From the IMG/VR virus record IMGVR_UViG_2541047698_000019: a stretch of 40,640 nt of DNA, one strand, 5' to 3'. The DNA is from a virus. Its lineage: Duplodnaviria; Heunggongvirae; Uroviricota; Caudoviricetes. Below, piece after piece: positions 1,320 to 40,264 of the stretch. The position numbers were made by a program, and so were the translations under genes. The notes beneath the pieces are model-generated. The model worked only from the letters and a program-made list of their open reading frames with translations, did not search any database and had not been told where the DNA came from. Each line of letters opens with the position of its first letter. Within the stretch, counting starts at the first letter, position 1.

Positions 1320-1423
1320 ATGCACGGTAATTCTGAAATGCAAAAAATCAACCAAACCAGCGCAATGCCTGAAAAAACTGACGTTCACTGGAGTGGTCGG
1401 TTTAGCGTTGCACCAATGCTCGA
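1320..1423 (+). pseudogene. dusA: displaced original 5' end of dusA (about 35 codons) at the distal prophage junction
   Basis: ATG at 1320 opens a frame reading MHGNSEMQKINQTSAMPEKTDVHWSGRFSVAPMLD, about 80 percent identical in DNA to the start of the intact dusA at 39227, then runs into unrelated sequence and stops at 1440-1442. From memory this matches the E. coli K-12 DusA N-terminus. Confidence 0.7.
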
Positions 1424-1567
1424 TAGGATGTACCGTTTTTGAAAAACAAGTAGTTATACACTCTGTGGGAGCCTATTGGGAACCCGGCGTTTTCATTTCA
1501 AGGTGTAATCCATACGCGGCTTAAGAATGAGATATAATGCGATTTTTAGTGTTCCGCTTGAGAGGCC

Positions 1568-6583: not shown

Positions 6584-6925
6584 ATGAACCAGTTTTATGT
6601 TCATGTTCGTCTGTTTGAAGCAACAGCCGAACAGACCAAAAAATTTGAAGAATTAATGCTTAACTTTCTGTACCAGAAAACAATCAAAGAGTCTGACGAT
6701 AGCTGCTGCAGACTGATTCCAGAGGGATATATCCTCAAAAGCACAATGAACTGCCAACAAATCCTTGATCAAACTTTTTCCATTGCTAACAGTGCTGGTG
6801 TTGACGCAAATATATTTGTCTGCAAATTTGAACAAAGCGTATGCTTACTTCCGTCTGCTTCCTTAGTTGGCAACGATTTTGTTCATCACGATCTTACGCC
6901 TAAGCCCATCAAGCTCGATTCTTAA
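6584..6925 (+). CDS. hypothetical AT-rich moron protein, antisense to the early-left operon
   Basis: ORF track 6548-6925; preferred start is the ATG 36 nt in (MNQFYVH...) with AAGGAA RBS. Candidate promoter TTCACC-N16-TATGCT upstream. About 40 percent GC. The 3' end overlaps 6863-7171 (-) by 63 bp. Confidence 0.35.
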   Translation: MNQFYVHVRLFEATAEQTKKFEELMLNFLYQKTIKESDDSCCRLIPEGYILKSTMNCQQILDQTFSIANSAGVDANIFVCKFEQSVCLLPSASLVGNDFVHHDLTPKPIKLDS

Positions 6926-7506: not shown

Positions 7507-8193
7507 TTACCAAGTGCGCGATGACCAGAATACTCTACCTATAACGTGAATTCTGGAACGCCTATCTTCGAAGGTGAGTATTTCATCTGGATACTCATCT
7601 TTATTGAAACTTCTTAGAATCAGACCACCGTCAGGTAAATTGATCAATATTTTAACTCTAAGTAATACGCCATCACGTATGGCATAAAGATCCCCATCAC
7701 GAATAGGAACCGTTTGGGAAACATCAACAGCAACAAAATCTCCATTGTTAAGTACAGGTAGTAAACTATTGCCCCAAATTTTTACGATCTTTGCATTGGA
7801 GACACATACACCAGCTTTTCTTAAATCAATCCTTCTTAGCGGGAACCAGTCTACAGTTGATTCAACTATTTCAGCCAAACATCCATTACCCGCTGATAAC
7901 TCGACATCTAGGACTGGAATGTTTGCAAAAATGTCAGGATCTAATGCTGTACTTTCAGCCTCCTTTACAACAAGGTCTGGGAAAGACGCGTTATCCTCAA
8001 TGCCCAATTGCAACCACTTTTGAGAAACCCCTAACACTTTAGCAATCTCTTTAATTTTCCGAGGCTGTTGAGTTTCTCCATTCTCGATTTTCGCTACGGA
8101 TTGTTGTGAAAGCCCAATTTTTTCAGCTAGTTGCGCCTGACTCATTCCTGCTTTTTCTCTTTCGCTTTTTAGTCTTTCTGCCAATGTTTTCAC
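7507..8193 (-). CDS. CI-like phage repressor (XRE-family HTH plus S24 LexA-like peptidase domain)
   Basis: 228 aa. N-terminal HTH (MSQAQLAEKIGLSQQSVAKIENG). C-terminal autocleavage-domain features (AG cleavage-site motif, S...K spacing). Non-ATG (GTG) start with GAGGGGGA RBS. Confidence 0.85.
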   Translation of the reverse strand: MKTLAERLKSEREKAGMSQAQLAEKIGLSQQSVAKIENGETQQPRKIKEIAKVLGVSQKWLQLGIEDNASFPDLVVKEAESTALDPDIFANIPVLDVELSAGNGCLAEIVESTVDWFPLRRIDLRKAGVCVSNAKIVKIWGNSLLPVLNNGDFVAVDVSQTVPIRDGDLYAIRDGVLLRVKILINLPDGGLILRSFNKDEYPDEILTFEDRRSRIHVIGRVFWSSRTW

Positions 8194-23925: not shown

Positions 23926-24421
23926 TTTCAAACAACCGGAGGAGATGGAGTTTAACCGTGCCAGGCTCCGAAGGGCATTTGTTCAAATCGGGCGTGTCTA
24001 TATGCGTGATGCCCGGCGGCTGGTGATGCGACGTGGTCGGTCTGCTCCAGGTGAAAACCCCGGCTATCAGACCGGACGACTTGCGCGTTCTATAGGTTAT
24101 TACGTCCCCCGTAAAAGCTCCCGTCGTTCTGGCCTGATGGTCAGGATTTCCCCTAACCAGAAAAACGGGCAGGGTAACCGGCGTTTTCCTGAAGGTTCTG
24201 CGTATTATCCGGCGTTTCTGTATTACGGTGTGCGTCATGCCGCATACGGGATGAGCAAAAAGGATAAGCGCCAGAAAAAGCAGCATTCATCCCGCTGGCG
24301 GCTGGCACCACGTAATAACTTTATGGCTGATGTCATCGACCAGCGTCGTTACTGGACACAAAAGTTACTGTCCCGTGAGTTACAGCGGTCATTACGTCCT
24401 GTAAGAAGGAAAAAAACATGA
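23897..24421 (+). CDS. HK97 gp10-like tail-component protein
   Basis: ORF 23870-24421. Likely GTG start at 23897 with GGGAGG RBS. Basic protein. Confidence 0.5.
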   Translation: MDQTAFLHVDFKQPEEMEFNRARLRRAFVQIGRVYMRDARRLVMRRGRSAPGENPGYQTGRLARSIGYYVPRKSSRRSGLMVRISPNQKNGQGNRRFPEGSAYYPAFLYYGVRHAAYGMSKKDKRQKKQHSSRWRLAPRNNFMADVIDQRRYWTQKLLSRELQRSLRPVRRKKT

Positions 24422-35736: not shown

Positions 35737-36783
35737 TCATATTAAAGCTTTTCGTAAAAGTGTCTTGCCGATTAAAACACCTCTTCGCTCTACAAGCTTG
35801 TGCGCAAAATAACAAACTATAAATAACAATAATAATATTTGAATGTTACTATTGATGTATTTAATTCCGATTTTATTAACTACTAATAACAAAGAGTCCC
35901 AAATCCAGTTATGAAATAAGTACACAGCATAAGTCATTTCAGATAGCAAATTGCATGCTTTGGATTCAATGAATCTATCTTTAAATAACCACGAACAAAG
36001 AAAAATAACAGTTCCTGTGAATGCGTAGTTGTAGTGCCCCCAGAATGGGTTTATTTTTTCAATGAGAGATAAATGAAGATAGAACATAGTTACGATGGAT
36101 ATTAAAGCAACAATCCGATTAACTAACTTATGCTCTGTAAGGTACACTACTACACCTATAAACAAAAATGGCGTATACAAGGTGAAGTAAGCATTATGAA
36201 AATCCTTCGCTACAGGGAAAGGATTAATGGTGGATATAAATAATGATATAAAAAGTAGTAGAACTGTTAAAACGTTTCCTTTATTTATGAGTCCGACTTT
36301 TTTAACCAAACCCATAAACACATAGAACAGCATTTCTATTCTTAACGTCCATTCAACACCAGCCAATGAAAGAGGTGTGTTAAAGAAATCGCCTATAAGC
36401 AATAATCTAGGTATTATTATGCTCAGAGGTGGAATGTTTCCACCATTATAGTATTGGATCAACATTTCAGCTAAAACAGCAAAAATATAGAGTGGGTATA
36501 TTCTAAATATTCTTTTTAAATAAAATTCAAAAGTTGCTTCTTTTTGTAGTACGTGGGTGATGATGTACCCTGAAACAAGAAAGAAGATCACAACCCCCAT
36601 TGCACCACCGAAACTGGCATCTGCTAGTAATCCGTAAAAAAGCCTCAGTGTAACGTGGTTACTTGGATCGTTCGCCAACGAAGATAAATCTTTGTTGAAC
36701 TTATGACCTAACACCACAAGGGAGAACGCAATTACACGCATGTAATCTAAAAAAAGAATTCGACGATTGTTCATGATTTTCAT
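35737..36783 (-). CDS. acyltransferase family 3 membrane protein (O-antigen acetylase, Oac-like)
   Basis: 348 aa polytopic membrane protein with the family-typical N-terminal FLDYMRVIAFSLVVLGH region. Very AT-rich. Confidence 0.75.
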   Translation of the reverse strand: MKIMNNRRILFLDYMRVIAFSLVVLGHKFNKDLSSLANDPSNHVTLRLFYGLLADASFGGAMGVVIFFLVSGYIITHVLQKEATFEFYLKRIFRIYPLYIFAVLAEMLIQYYNGGNIPPLSIIIPRLLLIGDFFNTPLSLAGVEWTLRIEMLFYVFMGLVKKVGLINKGNVLTVLLLFISLFISTINPFPVAKDFHNAYFTLYTPFLFIGVVVYLTEHKLVNRIVALISIVTMFYLHLSLIEKINPFWGHYNYAFTGTVIFLCSWLFKDRFIESKACNLLSEMTYAVYLFHNWIWDSLLLVVNKIGIKYINSNIQILLLLFIVCYFAHKLVERRGVLIGKTLLRKALI

Positions 36784-36858
36784 TTAATTTATTGAGTTGT
36801 GATCATTTTATAGCAACTAACCATTGTTAGCTATGCTGTCACCTTGTAAACAAGATGG

Positions 36859-37185
36859 TTATGTGACATCACCGTCGATCCAGTCCTCCCACCACTGCAT
36901 CATTTCTCTGCGCTTATCGAGATACTGAGCATGGTTATAAATCCAACGCACAGATCCGCCGTTGGCATGCGCCAGTTGAGCTTTAATGACTTTGCGACGC
37001 AACTCAATAATCAAGAGCATGGAGTCAATCATCCAATCATCAATTGATCGAGAATTGAAGTGGTTGTTGAGACAAAACTGAGACACACAAAGCCTTGCAC
37101 TTGATTGCAAGGCTTTGGGCTCTTCTGTGGGGGCTACATGTCTGAAGAGCGTTGTGCCGTATTTGTGACATGCATATAACAACAT
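36859..37185 (-). CDS. hypothetical protein (doubtful)
   Basis: 108-aa ORF with no convincing RBS and no family recognised. May be a remnant. Confidence 0.25.
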   Translation of the reverse strand: MLLYACHKYGTTLFRHVAPTEEPKALQSSARLCVSQFCLNNHFNSRSIDDWMIDSMLLIIELRRKVIKAQLAHANGGSVRWIYNHAQYLDKRREMMQWWEDWIDGDVT

Positions 37186-37266
37186 AATGCATCAACTTTC
37201 TGTTTGTGCCATCAGCTATGGCTTAGTGAATGCAGTTAATGCTTGCTAGAATGATTGGTGCTACAG

Positions 37267-37293
37267 ATTCGTAATGCGAAGGTTGTAGGTTCG
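37267..37293 (+). other. tRNA-Thr-like fragment (anticodon-arm to T-arm segment), not a functional tRNA
   Basis: ATTCGTAATGCGAAGGTTGTAGGTTCG closely resembles the corresponding part of enterobacterial tRNA-Thr (thrW, from memory), but the flanking sequence cannot form the acceptor, anticodon or T stems. Confidence 0.4.
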
Positions 37294-37452
37294 TCCCCCT
37301 TTTCAGTACTACCTAAATCAATAAGTTACCTAACTTTCAGTTATGACAGAAAGATATATATGCCAAGTAAAGTATAGAGAAACTGTCAAAGCAATAAAGG
37401 CTGGTGCTCCGTGTGTGGCGGCTGATGTATAGACATTTATGCAGATGAAACG

Positions 37453-37478
37453 AAAAAAAGCCCGCATCTGCGGGCTTT
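37453..37478 (-). terminator. rho-independent terminator on the minus strand
   Basis: On the minus strand: aagcccgc-agat-gcgggctt followed by seven U. Lies about 250 nt downstream of the dinI-like gene. Confidence 0.65.
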
Positions 37479-37594
37479 CATGTCATTAGGGCACTGCGGC
37501 TCCTTTGCGTATCCTTTTTGTTTCCTCACAGTCTGGTCGGTGCCCTGCTGAGACCAATAACTTCCAGTTTTTGTTAGTGTTATCCTTACACCGT

Positions 37595-37608
37595 CCAATC
37601 ATGATTGG
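37595..37608. repeat. 14-bp perfect palindrome CCAATCATGATTGG
   Basis: Read directly. Shares the CCAATC/GATTGG half-sites with the inverted repeat at 2210-2230. Confidence 0.5.
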
Positions 37609-37730
37609 TGGGCTGGCGGGAGTTGAAACTGCAGGCACGTCGTATGCAAGAACATGCTGTGGCTGGCTGCTTTACTTTCGATAGTGCGAGTATTGAATGA
37701 TTTCCAGCCGTTACCGATTTTACGTGTTAA

Positions 37731-37979
37731 TTAGTGAACAAACCACTCGTCAGCAGATTCCCAGGTATCTTTCAGAGTCTCCTGAACAAAAGTTTTTACA
37801 GAATCCTTATCTGCGGTGCGTGTAACAGAAAGGCCATCGTTGCTGGTGGCTTTTACGATCACCTCTACATCATCATAACGTTTACTGATGCGTCGGGTTA
37901 ATTCTTCCTTTAACGCGTCCACAGCACCGGTTGGCATTTTAGTCATTTTTTCTTTGGCTATGCAGATTTCAATACGCAT
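37731..37979 (-). CDS. DinI-like DNA-damage-inducible protein
   Basis: 82 aa. [10 protein letters not shown]...[17 protein letters not shown] parallels E. coli DinI (from memory). AGAGGGA RBS. Confidence 0.8.
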
Positions 37980-37992
37980 AAAAGTCCCTCTA

Positions 37993-38040
37993 TACTGTGT
38001 TTGTATACAGTGTTATTTTTAACTGTATGGATAAACAGTG
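37993..38040. promoter_or_regulatory. two tandem LexA (SOS) boxes upstream of the dinI-like gene
   Basis: TACTGTGTTTGTATACAGTG and AACTGTATGGATAAACAGTG both fit CTGT-N8-ACAG. Confidence 0.65.
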
Positions 38041-39138
38041 TCAAGAGGTCTTATTTCTGCTCCTTTGGAGCTCTTCAAAACGATTATGTAAAGATTTCGG
38101 ATACAGTTCGGTATATACCTGCCATAGCACGTTTAATGAACGATGCCCTGTAACTTGGGCGACTTCCTCAATACTAAAACCAGCCTCAAATAAGCGACTT
38201 GCCCCTTCTCTACGCAAATCATGGTATCGCAGATCTTTAATACCTAATTTGCTTCTTACCCTCTGAAATCCCGCAGTAACAGAAGTGCTGTTATATGGAA
38301 AAATGAATTCCGATTTTTGGGGCTGTCGTTGGACGATATCCCAGGCTTCCCCAAGCAAGGCTACTTTCATGTGGTTGCCTTCCTTTTTGCGTGGATCTTT
38401 CCTGTCTCTTACGAGTATAGATTTTTGTTCTTGGTCGAGATCTTCCCATCGTAACCGGCATACTTCTCCGATTCGCATACAGGACCACACAGAAAATTTG
38501 AGGATATCAACGAACGGAATTTTTGAGCATTTATGAGTAGATCGTTGTTGAAGGCCTTCAATGAGCATGTCCAGTTCATCAGATGCTGGTCTACGATTAC
38601 GACGGTTTGATTTACCAATCAAACCAAGTTTAAGTAGATATGGACGAGCGCTTTTCGCTGGGTTTGATGTGTAATTAATTCCGTATACAGGTTTGGCTGC
38701 ATCCAGAACACTGCCAAGATAACTAACATCGTGGCTGACTGTTGCTGGACCTGCACCAGCGTTGTTTCTTAGCCTGCAATGTTCAATTACGTCATTTTCG
38801 GTCAGTTCGGATAGTTTGATCGCGGAGATGTCACTATCCATAAGCAGTTCCAGCACATATCTTTTAGTACGGCCTGCTTTACCTCCGGCATTTGGGTCAT
38901 TTAAATATTTGTGTAGTAAGTCACGGACTGTAAGTCCGTCAACTGCATTTGATGATGGAATGCCATATAGATCTAATTCCATCACTTTCTGTGTACCCCA
39001 TGTTTTGGCATGGGCATGTTTAGGGAATGTTTTGCTTTCCCTGTAAGTGATAACACCTTTTTCTTTGATAATCACATTACAGCGATAGCGTGGTGTGCCA
39101 TCGGATTTTAGTCGTTTCTCTATGTTATAGTACGCCAT
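38041..39138 (-). CDS. tyrosine integrase (dusA-associated integrase type)
   Basis: 365 aa. C-terminal catalytic region with R...H-x-x-R...Y pattern (HDLRR, GHRS, Y near the C-terminus). Adjacent to and divergent from dusA. Confidence 0.9.
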   Translation of the reverse strand: MAYYNIEKRLKSDGTPRYRCNVIIKEKGVITYRESKTFPKHAHAKTWGTQKVMELDLYGIPSSNAVDGLTVRDLLHKYLNDPNAGGKAGRTKRYVLELLMDSDISAIKLSELTENDVIEHCRLRNNAGAGPATVSHDVSYLGSVLDAAKPVYGINYTSNPAKSARPYLLKLGLIGKSNRRNRRPASDELDMLIEGLQQRSTHKCSKIPFVDILKFSVWSCMRIGEVCRLRWEDLDQEQKSILVRDRKDPRKKEGNHMKVALLGEAWDIVQRQPQKSEFIFPYNSTSVTAGFQRVRSKLGIKDLRYHDLRREGASRLFEAGFSIEEVAQVTGHRSLNVLWQVYTELYPKSLHNRFEELQRSRNKTS

Positions 39139-39226: not shown

Positions 39227-39330
39227 ATGCACGATAATCCTGAAACACAGAAAACTAATCAAACCAGCGTGATGCCTGAAAAAACTGGCGCTTACTGGAG
39301 TTCCCGGTTTAGCATTGCTCCTATGCTCGA
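39227..39330 (+). repeat. phage-supplied replacement 5' end of dusA (direct-repeat copy at the right junction)
   Basis: About 80 percent identical to 1320-1423. Identity ends in a shared ATGCTCGA, after which this copy continues as dusA and the left copy as phage DNA. Confidence 0.7.
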
Positions 39331-40264
39331 CTGGACGGACAGACATTGCCGCTATTTCTTGCGTCTGCTTTCCCGCAATACGTTGCTGTATACCGAAATG
39401 GTGACTACAGGGGCGATTATTCACGGTAAAGGTGATTACCTGGCGTACAGTGAAGAAGAACATCCGGTAGCATTGCAACTGGGCGGTAGCGATCCGGCGG
39501 CGCTGGCGCAGTGTGCAAAGCTGGCAGAAGCGCGCGGATATGATGAGATCAACCTGAATGTCGGCTGCCCGTCTGACCGGGTGCAGAACGGCATGTTTGG
39601 GGCGTGTCTGATGGGTAATGCGCAGCTGGTTGCCGACTGCGTGAAAGCGATGCGCGATGTGGTGTCGATTCCGGTGACGGTGAAAACGCGTATTGGCATC
39701 GACGACCAGGACAGCTATGAATTTCTCTGCGATTTCATCAACACCGTTTCCGGCAAAGGCGAGTGTGAGATGTTCATCATCCACGCACGTAAAGCCTGGC
39801 TTTCGGGGTTAAGCCCGAAAGAAAACCGTGAAATCCCGCCGCTCGATTATCCGCGTGTGTATCAACTGAAGCGTGACTTTCCGCATCTGACAATGTCGAT
39901 TAACGGTGGCATCAAGTCGCTGGAAGAGGCTAAAGCGCATTTGCAACATATGGATGGCGTGATGGTCGGGCGCGAAGCGTATCAGAATCCGGGTATTCTG
40001 GCGGCGGTAGACCGAGAGATCTTTGGTTCCTCGGATACCGATGCCGATCCGGTGGCGGTAGTGCGCGCCATGTATCCGTACATTGAGCGTGAACTCAGCC
40101 AGGGGACGTATCTTGGCCATATTACCCGGCATATGCTGGGCTTGTTCCAGGGTATTCCTGGCGCGCGGCAGTGGCGGCGTTATTTAAGTGAAAATGCCCA
40201 TAAAGCGGGTGCAGACATTAATGTGCTGGAACACGCGCTCAAACTGGTGGCGGATAAGCGTTAA
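39227..40264 (+). CDS. dusA: tRNA-dihydrouridine(20/20a) synthase DusA
   Basis: 345 aa. TIM-barrel Dus-family signatures and near-identity to E. coli DusA outside the first about 35 residues. Confidence 0.95.

Follow-up and report, generated by a model that had tools for sequence, protein, structure and literature searches.

A dinI-like gene lies directly behind the integrase gene of a prophage, and two LexA boxes occupy the short gap that separates the two genes. This arrangement raises the question of which gene the boxes control, and of what a phage-borne member of the DinI family would do for the prophage or for its host. The locus was analyzed in a stretch of DNA of 40,640 nucleotides (IMG/VR record IMGVR_UViG_2541047698_000019), which is called the window here. 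The coordinates that an earlier note had given for the locus proved to be right, and the positions of the individual features are listed in Table 1. The integrase ORF terminates with TGA, and the dinI-like ORF begins 61 bp later. All features of the cassette, as well as the integrase and the prophage repressor, are encoded on the minus strand. Read on the strand of the gene, the gap has the sequence TTGACA-CTGTTTATCCATACAG-TTAAAAATAACA-CTGTATACAAACACAG-TATAGAGGGACTTTT-ATG.

Table 1. Features of the dinI locus and of the surrounding prophage (positions in the window)
Feature	Position	Strand	Basis
CI-like prophage repressor (HTH_3 + Peptidase_S24), presumed RecA*-dependent induction switch	7507-8193	minus	Pfam Peptidase_S24, E = 9.5e-14
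O-acetyltransferase, between tail-fibre genes and dinI	35737-36783		annotated by Pfam/PHROG searches
Remainder of dinI 3' UTR, ssrA-type attP remnant	37443-37627	minus	83% identical to phage LLS attP / 'tmRNA pseudogene' region
Intrinsic terminator closing the dinI 3' UTR, stem followed by T-run	37456-37479 (stem)	minus	terminator scan
Conserved non-coding linker of 93 nt, first part of dinI 3' UTR	37631-37723	minus	shared with lambda, HK97 and phi80
dinI-like gene, 82 aa, predicted RecA-filament-binding protein	37731-37979	minus	Pfam DinI, PHROG 189, PDB 1GHH/7YWA match
int-dinI intergenic gap, 61 bp	37980-38040	minus	ORF coordinates
Shine-Dalgarno sequence GAGGG, 6 nt ahead of ATG	37986-37990	minus	direct reading
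Proximal LexA box CACTGTATACAAACACAGTA, just past the -10, over the expected transcription start	37993-38012 (core 37995-38010)	minus	predicted; heterology index 4.05
-10 region TAAAAAT (TAAAAA with 17-nt spacer or AAAAAT with 18-nt spacer)	38015-38021	minus	predicted; scan and direct reading
Distal LexA box CACTGTTTATCCATACAGTT, fills the -35/-10 spacer	38021-38040 (core 38023-38038)	minus	predicted; core pattern and heterology index 5.27
-35 hexamer TTGACA of the predicted dinI promoter, contains int stop TGA (38041-38043)	38039-38044	minus	consensus scan
Tyrosine integrase, 365 aa, dusA-targeting type, directly upstream of the cassette	38041-39138	minus	Pfam Phage_integrase

Flanked by a yjbM-like DUF2713 gene on one side and by dusA on the other, the prophage extends from about 1.4 to 39.2 kb in the window. 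The integrase gene adjoins dusA (39227-40264), the 5' end of which is supplied by the phage and begins at 39227. The native 5' end of dusA has been displaced and is found as a diverged duplicate at 1320-1424, beside the yjbM-like gene. The structural genes are 97.7% identical to those of Shigella phage SfV. Judged from its sequence, the element is an SfV-like prophage inserted in dusA; elements with dusA-targeting integrases are a family described in PMC4482086. Between the tail-fibre genes and dinI there is a dead thrW-type attP/integrase remnant, and its presence shows that a swap of the integration module has taken place. A live dusA-type module of int and dinI is thus found beside dead attachment remnants of both the thrW and the ssrA type. 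The translation of the repressor contains an Ala-Gly site and the Ser/Lys motifs GNS and RVK in addition to the HTH_3 and Peptidase_S24 domains, in agreement with its earlier description as an autocleaving S24-type protein. Since the repressor is of the S24 type, induction should proceed by RecA*-stimulated autocleavage and not by an antirepressor.

The product of the dinI-like gene is a member of the DinI family by several measures, and its earlier designation was borne out. It matches the Pfam DinI profile (PF06183) with 70.4 bits against a cut-off of 24.2 (E = 1.6e-19), residues 16-80 covering positions 1-63 of the 63 in the profile. The match to PHROG 189, 'RecA filament binding protein DinI', has an E value of 3.2e-30, where the protein covers only positions 71-149 of 151. 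E. coli DinI (PDB codes 1GHH and 7YWA) is matched over the full length with 47% identity and two short indels (E = 4.3e-13). The score for NCBIfam NF007893, the chromosomal DinI equivalog, is 72.7 bits and lies under the cut-off of 111, so the protein is best regarded as a DinI-like paralogue rather than as the housekeeping orthologue. A single-sequence AF2 model (pLDDT 81.7) has the element order E-H-H-E-E-H-H and corresponds to the small alpha/beta fold of DinI, which is characterized by a three-stranded sheet and two helices, one of them the C-terminal acidic helix. When this model was compared with the Protein Data Bank using Foldseek, 1GHH and 7YWA were the top matches (E about 8e-6, TM 0.62), and there were no others at E <= 0.001.

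In the RecA-DinI complex determined by cryo-EM (7YWA), a pocket consisting of Leu-13, Leu-21, Trp-71, Trp-77, and Phe-78 takes up loop L2 of RecA, and an acidic patch of Glu-24, Glu-69, and Asp-76 faces RecA residues Lys-232, Arg-243, and Lys-245. Mutation of the residues of DinI that contact RecA impairs filament stabilization (PMC9926225). The equivalents of the eight residues in our alignment are, in the same order, Met-15, Leu-23, Trp-73, Trp-79, Phe-80, Glu-26, Asp-71, and Glu-78. Five of them are identical to those of E. coli DinI (Leu-23, Glu-26, Trp-73, Trp-79, and Phe-80), and the other three (Met-15, Asp-71, and Glu-78) are conservative replacements. From this conservation, the 82-residue protein is predicted to bind and stabilize RecA filaments. 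In view of the 47% identity and of the NF007893 score below the cut-off, it could bind RecA with another affinity than E. coli DinI does, and its effects could be balanced differently. Compared with diverged proteins of the same 82-residue class, dN/dS amounts to 0.13-0.24, and the protein is therefore under purifying selection.

Both LexA boxes in the gap have perfect CTGT-N8-ACAG cores, and their designation as near-consensus in the earlier note is a fair one. The proximal box, CACTGTATACAAACACAGTA, matches TACTGTATATATATACAGTA at 16 of 20 positions, and the distal box, CACTGTTTATCCATACAGTT, at 15 of 20. With 28 bp between their centres and no overlap, the boxes can properly be called tandem. 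The end of the proximal box is 13 nt away from the ATG. The core pattern occurs three times in the 40.6-kb window, against an expectation of 0.51, and two of these occurrences are the boxes of the dinI promoter; the third, at 6611, has a poor score as a 20-mer. When every 20-mer in the window was scored, the approximate heterology index was 4.05 for the proximal box and 5.27 for the distal box, followed by 11.2 for the next-best site. These values are approximate because the matrix was rebuilt from a set of E. coli SOS boxes and is not the exact Lewis matrix; the functional E. coli boxes behind it range from 0.7 to 9.1, and both dinI boxes fall inside this range. None of 30 shuffled windows contained a 20-mer site at or below 5.27 on the same index. 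By the index scores, the distance to the next-best site, and the shuffled windows, the prophage has no credible LexA targets other than these two boxes.

The predicted dinI promoter matches the consensus at 10 of 12 positions and was the sole good match in the scan, with a perfect -35 hexamer and a weak -10 hexamer (4 of 6). Promoter-like matches were no more common in the scanned DNA than in shuffled sequences, and the placement of the boxes relative to the +1 position depends on that consensus scan. A promoter on the plus strand that would make use of the palindromic boxes was also considered, and the promoter scan gave none. Neither a terminator scan nor reading of the sequence revealed a terminator between int and dinI. 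By analogy with other LexA-controlled dinI genes, the two predicted boxes would bind LexA and make the promoter responsive to DNA damage.

A comparison of related loci shows which DNA the boxes travel with. A contig scan with the single protein returned four near-identical loci, and a viral scan returned relatives at 98% identity or more. Of the close relatives from IMG/VR and GTDB, 61 had 70 nt or more of sequence upstream of the gene, and 60 of these 61 retain both perfect box cores. Immediately on the 5' side of TTGACA, at least four unrelated kinds of DNA were encountered, namely the integrase found here, att-arm-like DNA with an 'ATGCCCC' repeat, and two more. Divergence begins immediately before the -35 hexamer, and the TTGACA hexamer itself is retained in the relatives despite the changed upstream DNA. 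That at least four upstream contexts precede one and the same cassette shows that the boxes travel with dinI and not with int. On the other side, the similarity between cassettes stops 80-110 nt past the dinI stop codon. The unit of int and dinI is present with 96.6-96.7% DNA identity in phages mEp460 and SKA5. The dinI part also occurs in the cdtI phage, in CP-1639, and in dozens of Stx1 and Stx2 phages, and it persists in prophage remnants that lack an integrase. Using a query of 315 nt that comprises the promoter and the gene, and counting matches at 80% coverage or more, we found the cassette in 1759 of 5426 complete E. coli genomes (32%), in up to six places per genome. Taken from its sequence distribution, the promoter together with dinI behaves as a mobile cassette.

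More distant phage homologues of dinI were gathered by tblastn against phage records, and in 11 of 12 a CTG-N10-CAG box is located no more than 60 nt from the ATG. The homologues belong to two classes. The 82-residue class is found in E. coli and Klebsiella, in phages such as 1720a-02, PhiR12_2, P-EibC, BP-4795, and P18-100, where the gene stands alone at the prophage end and usually has two boxes. The 77-residue class includes Gifsy-1, mEp237, SEN34, Aeromonas pAEv1818, Klebsiella phi9.2, and the 74-residue protein of PHB10; here the gene is located in the nin region and has one box. Among the loci of the twelve homologues compared, a small ORF and a DUF1367 gene always follow dinI of the 77-residue class. 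By its length, position, and boxes, the gene in the window is assigned to the stand-alone 82-residue class.

The DNA downstream of dinI is a mosaic of a conserved linker and an attachment-site remnant. The linker forms the downstream limit of the sequence that the cassettes have in common. It is 86% identical, without gaps, to lambda 24164-24256, a region devoid of dinI, and in HK97 it directly follows sib, again without dinI; it is also present in phi80 and others. A degenerate dinI beside the lambda copy was sought by blastn and tblastn, and none was found. A coding function of the linker was rejected, as the sole open frame is interrupted by a stop codon in lambda, and most of the differences between lambda and the window in this frame are non-synonymous. 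A Gifsy-style antirepressor downstream of dinI was likewise rejected, in view of the mosaic nature of the DNA and of a search that yielded no conserved ORF, family match, or DUF1367 gene. The downstream ORF of 50 residues has no match in Pfam or PHROG, and that of 53 residues has none in Pfam. A search of the whole window against Rfam gave nothing at the gathering threshold, and a permissive search of 36800-38100 gave only terminator look-alikes below threshold (STnc350 with 29 bits against 60, and a Leu leader). ARAGORN detected no tRNA or tmRNA. The 3' UTR has no structure signal (z-score of the MFE fold 0.00), and its duplex with positions -60 to +30 of E. coli ftsZ has an energy of -41.9 kcal/mol compared with -39.8 +/- 4.3 for shuffled sequences, 31% of which were as good; the pairing is also no better than that of other segments of the window. 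The dinI cassette is monocistronic and has no downstream partner gene.

The closest counterparts of the locus are found in coliphages. The same cassette, with 82-residue proteins that are 58-99% identical, is present in mEp460 (gene 21), SKA5, cdtI (gp30), 1720a-02, P-EibC, BP-4795 (ORF85), and many Stx1 and Stx2 phages. These copies share the TTGACA -35 hexamer, the two LexA boxes, the Shine-Dalgarno sequence, and the position by the tail-fibre genes at the int/att end; mEp460 and SKA5 also carry the same integrase as the window. The cassette itself is essentially unchanged, whereas the 3' flank past about 100 nt varies by phage, and in BP-4795 the distal box is degenerate. The records of these phages annotate the gene but not the LexA boxes, and that of mEp460 annotates a promoter and a 'DinI-like protein'. 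The cassette is thus a common unit that has already been annotated, a point absent from the earlier note.

Among the systems studied by experiment, the dinI-gfoA(gftA/gfhA)-irsA operons of Gifsy-1, -2, and -3 likewise have a phage dinI homologue directly behind a promoter with a LexA box (PMC3121763). The Gifsy homologues have one box, with a heterology index of 3.9-5.3 and 19 nt from the ATG, and are up-regulated 4.5-23-fold with nalidixic acid (PMC8072944). DinI-3xFLAG of Gifsy-2 accumulates after mitomycin C, and replacing the region of the box abolishes the response (PMC3121763). [quoted passage not shown] The Gifsy class differs from the window gene in its length of 77 residues (44% identity), its single box, and its location in the nin region. 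The two features that define the Gifsy operons, an antirepressor ORF with a DUF1367/irsA gene downstream of dinI and a repressor without an autocleavage domain, are both missing from the window: its cassette has no partner genes, and, in contrast to the Gifsy repressors, which are not cleaved, its repressor is of the S24 type.

In phi80, the dinL gene (DinI family, MsgA-like) has an annotated 'predicted LexA binding site' right after a TTGACA -35 hexamer, in the position of the distal box of the window, and is followed by the same linker of about 90 nt and then by tail-fibre genes, as on the 3' side of the cassette. It differs in that it encodes an MsgA-like protein of 79 residues and has a single box. 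The chromosomal dinI of E. coli is usually described with one LexA box. It encodes a protein of the same family and fold (1GHH; 7YWA) with 47% identity and is LexA-regulated, as is predicted for the window gene; the latter differs by its location in a mobile cassette, its two good boxes, and two short indels. In Salmonella, dinI has one good box and one poor box, with heterology indices of 4.0 and 17.6 (PMC8072944). Tum of phage 186 and its split versions in PSP3 and Fels-2 are LexA-controlled phage genes with a DinI-like module, but induction is driven there by an antirepressor half, which is joined to the DinI-like half or lies next to it and has no equivalent in the window (PMC3121763). Finally, the dinI-DinR locus of Klebsiella pneumoniae, which is bound by LexA in ChIP, gives a LexA-controlled dinI mRNA with a functional 3' end (PMC10907235). 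DinR needs a stretch of the 3' UTR that is specific to Klebsiella and pairs with ftsZ, whereas the 3' UTR in the window is devoid of such pairing and of a structure signal.

Together, these observations lead us to propose, as the probable explanation, that the locus is a self-contained LexA-repressed 'moron' at the int/att end of an SfV-like prophage, consisting of a sigma-70 promoter, two operators, a monocistronic gene of the dinI family, and a 3' UTR, and that its net effect would most likely be a brake or delay on slow RecA* cleavages. In the undamaged cell, LexA dimers on the spacer operator and the start-site operator would keep the promoter shut. After DNA damage, RecA* would stimulate autocleavage of LexA, the promoter would open, and the 82-residue protein would accumulate. 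Its hydrophobic pocket would receive loop L2 of RecA, with the acidic patch facing Lys-232, Arg-243, and Lys-245. The bound protein would stabilize RecA filaments and compete with other clients of the groove, resulting in a dose-dependent brake or delay on slow RecA*-dependent cleavages, namely those of the prophage's own S24 repressor, of the repressors of co-resident prophages, and of UmuD. LexA, UmuD, and lambda CI share the same features of the RecA groove (PMC9926225), and DinI produced after damage is therefore expected to stabilize filaments and to compete with CI-type repressors and UmuD. As the groove is common to DinI and lambda CI, the phage dinI could plausibly affect induction, and a limitation of induction by phage DinI has already been suggested for Stx phages (PMC8456039). 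The phage copy may be redundant, as a dinI gene is already present on the chromosome of E. coli.

The boxes might serve a gene other than dinI. The earlier note had suggested that they could affect read-through from the integrase gene. LexA would then act as a roadblock or control the 3' end of int transcripts. The overlap of the -35 hexamer with the int stop codon and the absence of an int-dinI terminator would fit this suggestion. However, the boxes travel with dinI behind unrelated upstream DNA without an integrase, and they are placed as the operators of a promoter are. To our knowledge, bound LexA is not an established transcription roadblock. The suggestion thus found no support, and we consider control of the integrase highly improbable. 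It is also very unlikely that the true payload of the SOS promoter lies downstream of dinI, in the form of a small antirepressor as in Gifsy or an sRNA derived from the 3' UTR as for DinR of Klebsiella. Both precedents are real (PMC3121763; PMC10907235), and the transcript would bear a 3' UTR of about 280 nt with a good terminator and U-tail. Against this, the downstream DNA offers only the 50- and 53-residue ORFs, without family matches, in an ssrA-type attP remnant, and the shared sequence ends about 100 nt past the stop codon, and lambda and HK97 have the 93-nt linker in the absence of dinI. A DUF1367/irsA gene is missing here, unlike in all loci of the Gifsy class, and the repressor is of the cleavable S24 type. 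An sRNA finds no counterpart in an Rfam match at threshold, in the fold z-score of 0, or in a pairing with the ftsZ leader better than that of shuffled sequences.

That the boxes are chance palindromes and the gene a decaying passenger is hardly credible. The weak -10 hexamer could be taken in its favour, and nothing else; two perfect cores lie within 61 bp where 0.51 would be expected in 40.6 kb, no shuffled window (0 of 30) has sites of such quality, and the dN/dS values of 0.13-0.24 speak against decay. The boxes are kept in all but one of the 61 relatives and across divergent homologues, and because of this conservation chance boxes can be excluded. A more serious alternative is that dinI is a host-directed gene of lysogenic conversion, from which the lysogen benefits through filament stabilization for repair, restraint of UmuD and mutagenesis, or quinolone tolerance, without a meaningful role in the prophage's own induction. 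The cassette is located at the end of the prophage, away from the immunity and lytic operons, and its neighbours include other conversion genes such as the O-acetyltransferase (Table 1). It survives in remnants without an integrase, and 32% of the complete E. coli genomes carry it, with as many as six copies per genome. Moreover, induction was unaffected by deletion of the Gifsy dinI genes (PMC3121763), cargo of the dinI type has been listed as a fitness gene (PMC6456863), and a DinI-like gene has been linked to quinolone adaptation (bioRxiv 10.1101/2023.06.20.545734). On the other hand, according to the structural data the protein should compete with CI-type repressors for one and the same groove of RecA (PMC9926225). 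A role in conversion is compatible with the proposed brake on RecA* cleavages and does not exclude it, because the molecular mechanism is identical; as an explanation in its own right we consider it possible but somewhat doubtful.

Starting from the LexA-repressed cassette proposed above, a more far-reaching idea is that the two-operator cassette is an induction governor owned by the phage. The protein would be made only once LexA is depleted, would compete with S24 repressors of the CI type for the RecA groove, and would set the amount and duration of damage that is needed before this prophage and co-resident prophages lyse. Because genomes carry one to six copies, the dosage of the cassette would tune the thresholds in polylysogens, including those of Stx phages and of toxin release. 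We regard this idea as unlikely.

The gene family, LexA control in phages, and the likely target are known, and annotations of the cassette can be found in many records of phages and of E. coli. The locus is not of a novel kind, since LexA control of phage dinI homologues has been shown for Gifsy and annotated for phi80. The two-operator promoter is the only feature of the 82-residue class for which we did not find a description in the literature; when the literature was searched for LexA ChIP data or expression data on the 82-residue two-box class of E. coli prophages, it yielded nothing specific, nor any experiment on the stand-alone two-operator class. Lambdoid and SfV-like phages exchange modules at their int/att end, and the window presents a clear case of this. 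By itself the finding changes little. It concerns an ordinary and very widespread prophage cargo gene. Its wider relevance lies in prevalence, with about one-third of complete E. coli genomes carrying the cassette, some of them in up to six copies, and with Stx-converting phages among the carriers. If it is true that the cassette shifts the RecA*-dependent cleavage of repressors or UmuD, then the thresholds of prophage induction, the antibiotic-triggered release of Shiga toxin, and SOS mutagenesis would be affected.

The window holds two diverged copies of the 5' end of dusA. The left copy adjoins a yjbM-like DUF2713 gene and is the displaced native end, while the right copy, which is in frame with dusA, is phage-supplied. 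Such a pair, displaced native and phage-supplied, is typical of dusA-targeting integrases, and the two copies set the prophage limits at roughly 1.4–39.2 kb. With SfII and SfI, the structural genes share 97.3% identity. An APEC strain is the source of phage SKA5, which likewise joins an SfV-like structural module to the same int+dinI module, which consists of a dusA-type tyrosine integrase and the dinI cassette (the dinI gene with its predicted promoter and two LexA boxes). The O-acetyltransferase product matches the O-antigen acetylase family more weakly than its PHROG, and the gene is probably a serotype-converting cargo of the SfV-like prophage.

Features of the window and their coordinates
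Feature	Position	Strand	Remark
dusA 5'-end copy, left	1320-1424		diverged
CTGT-N8-ACAG, third in the window	6611-6626		CTGTTTGAAGCAACAG; within an ORF
Packaging, head and contractile-tail genes	14000-34600		97.7% identity to Shigella phage SfV
Acyl_transf_3 O-acetyltransferase	35737-36783	-	PHROG 3333
ORF belonging to the thrW-type integration remnant	36859-37185	-	
thrW-tRNA-like attP and C-terminal end of a P4/SfX/HK446-type integrase	37046-37341	+	82-84% identity to HK446, mEpX2, HK542 and SfX
Part of dinI 3' UTR resembling phage LLS attP	37443-37627	-	83% identity
Non-coding linker, 93 nt	37631-37723	-	conserved 79-92% across many lambdoid phages
dusA 5'-end copy, right	39227-39330		diverged

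The third LexA-type core scores poorly with the 20-nt matrix, an approximate heterology-index matrix rebuilt from E. coli SOS boxes, and is probably a chance match. The dinI product (37731-37979) matches only positions 71-149 of the 151 in the PHROG 189 DinI profile. This is consistent with a family that also includes Tum-type proteins, where an antirepressor half is fused ahead of a DinI-like half.

The linker marks where the int/att/cargo region meets the tail-fibre genes. Lambdoid phages both with and without dinI carry it, including lambda (24164-24256), phi80, Chlobot, PhiR42_1 and HK97, in which it immediately follows sib. Neither a coding pattern nor a structural signal was found in it, and it may be a recombination joint.

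Among related cassettes without the window's integrase upstream, L092, L093, L102 and several IMG/VR loci carry repeated ATGCCCC / TGATGCCCCAT motifs just 5' of the -35 element. These resemble the arm-type sites that an integrase of a different att system would bind, so the cassette often directly abuts attP. In the window, the stretch of dinI 3' UTR resembling LLS matches a region of that phage annotated as attP / "tmRNA pseudogene", and it contains GTTTCAACTCCCGCCAGCCCACCA (37606-37629), which we take to resemble the ssrA 3' end. ARAGORN and Rfam gave no call for the ssrA-like stretch. It would be a second attachment-site remnant in the window.

The thrW-type remnant matches HK446, mEpX2, HK542 and SfX, whose records carry the annotation "attP; similar to thrW". 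It sits between the O-acetyltransferase gene and the live dusA-type int+dinI module, and it is dead. This position implies that an SfV-like phage switched integration site through module replacement.
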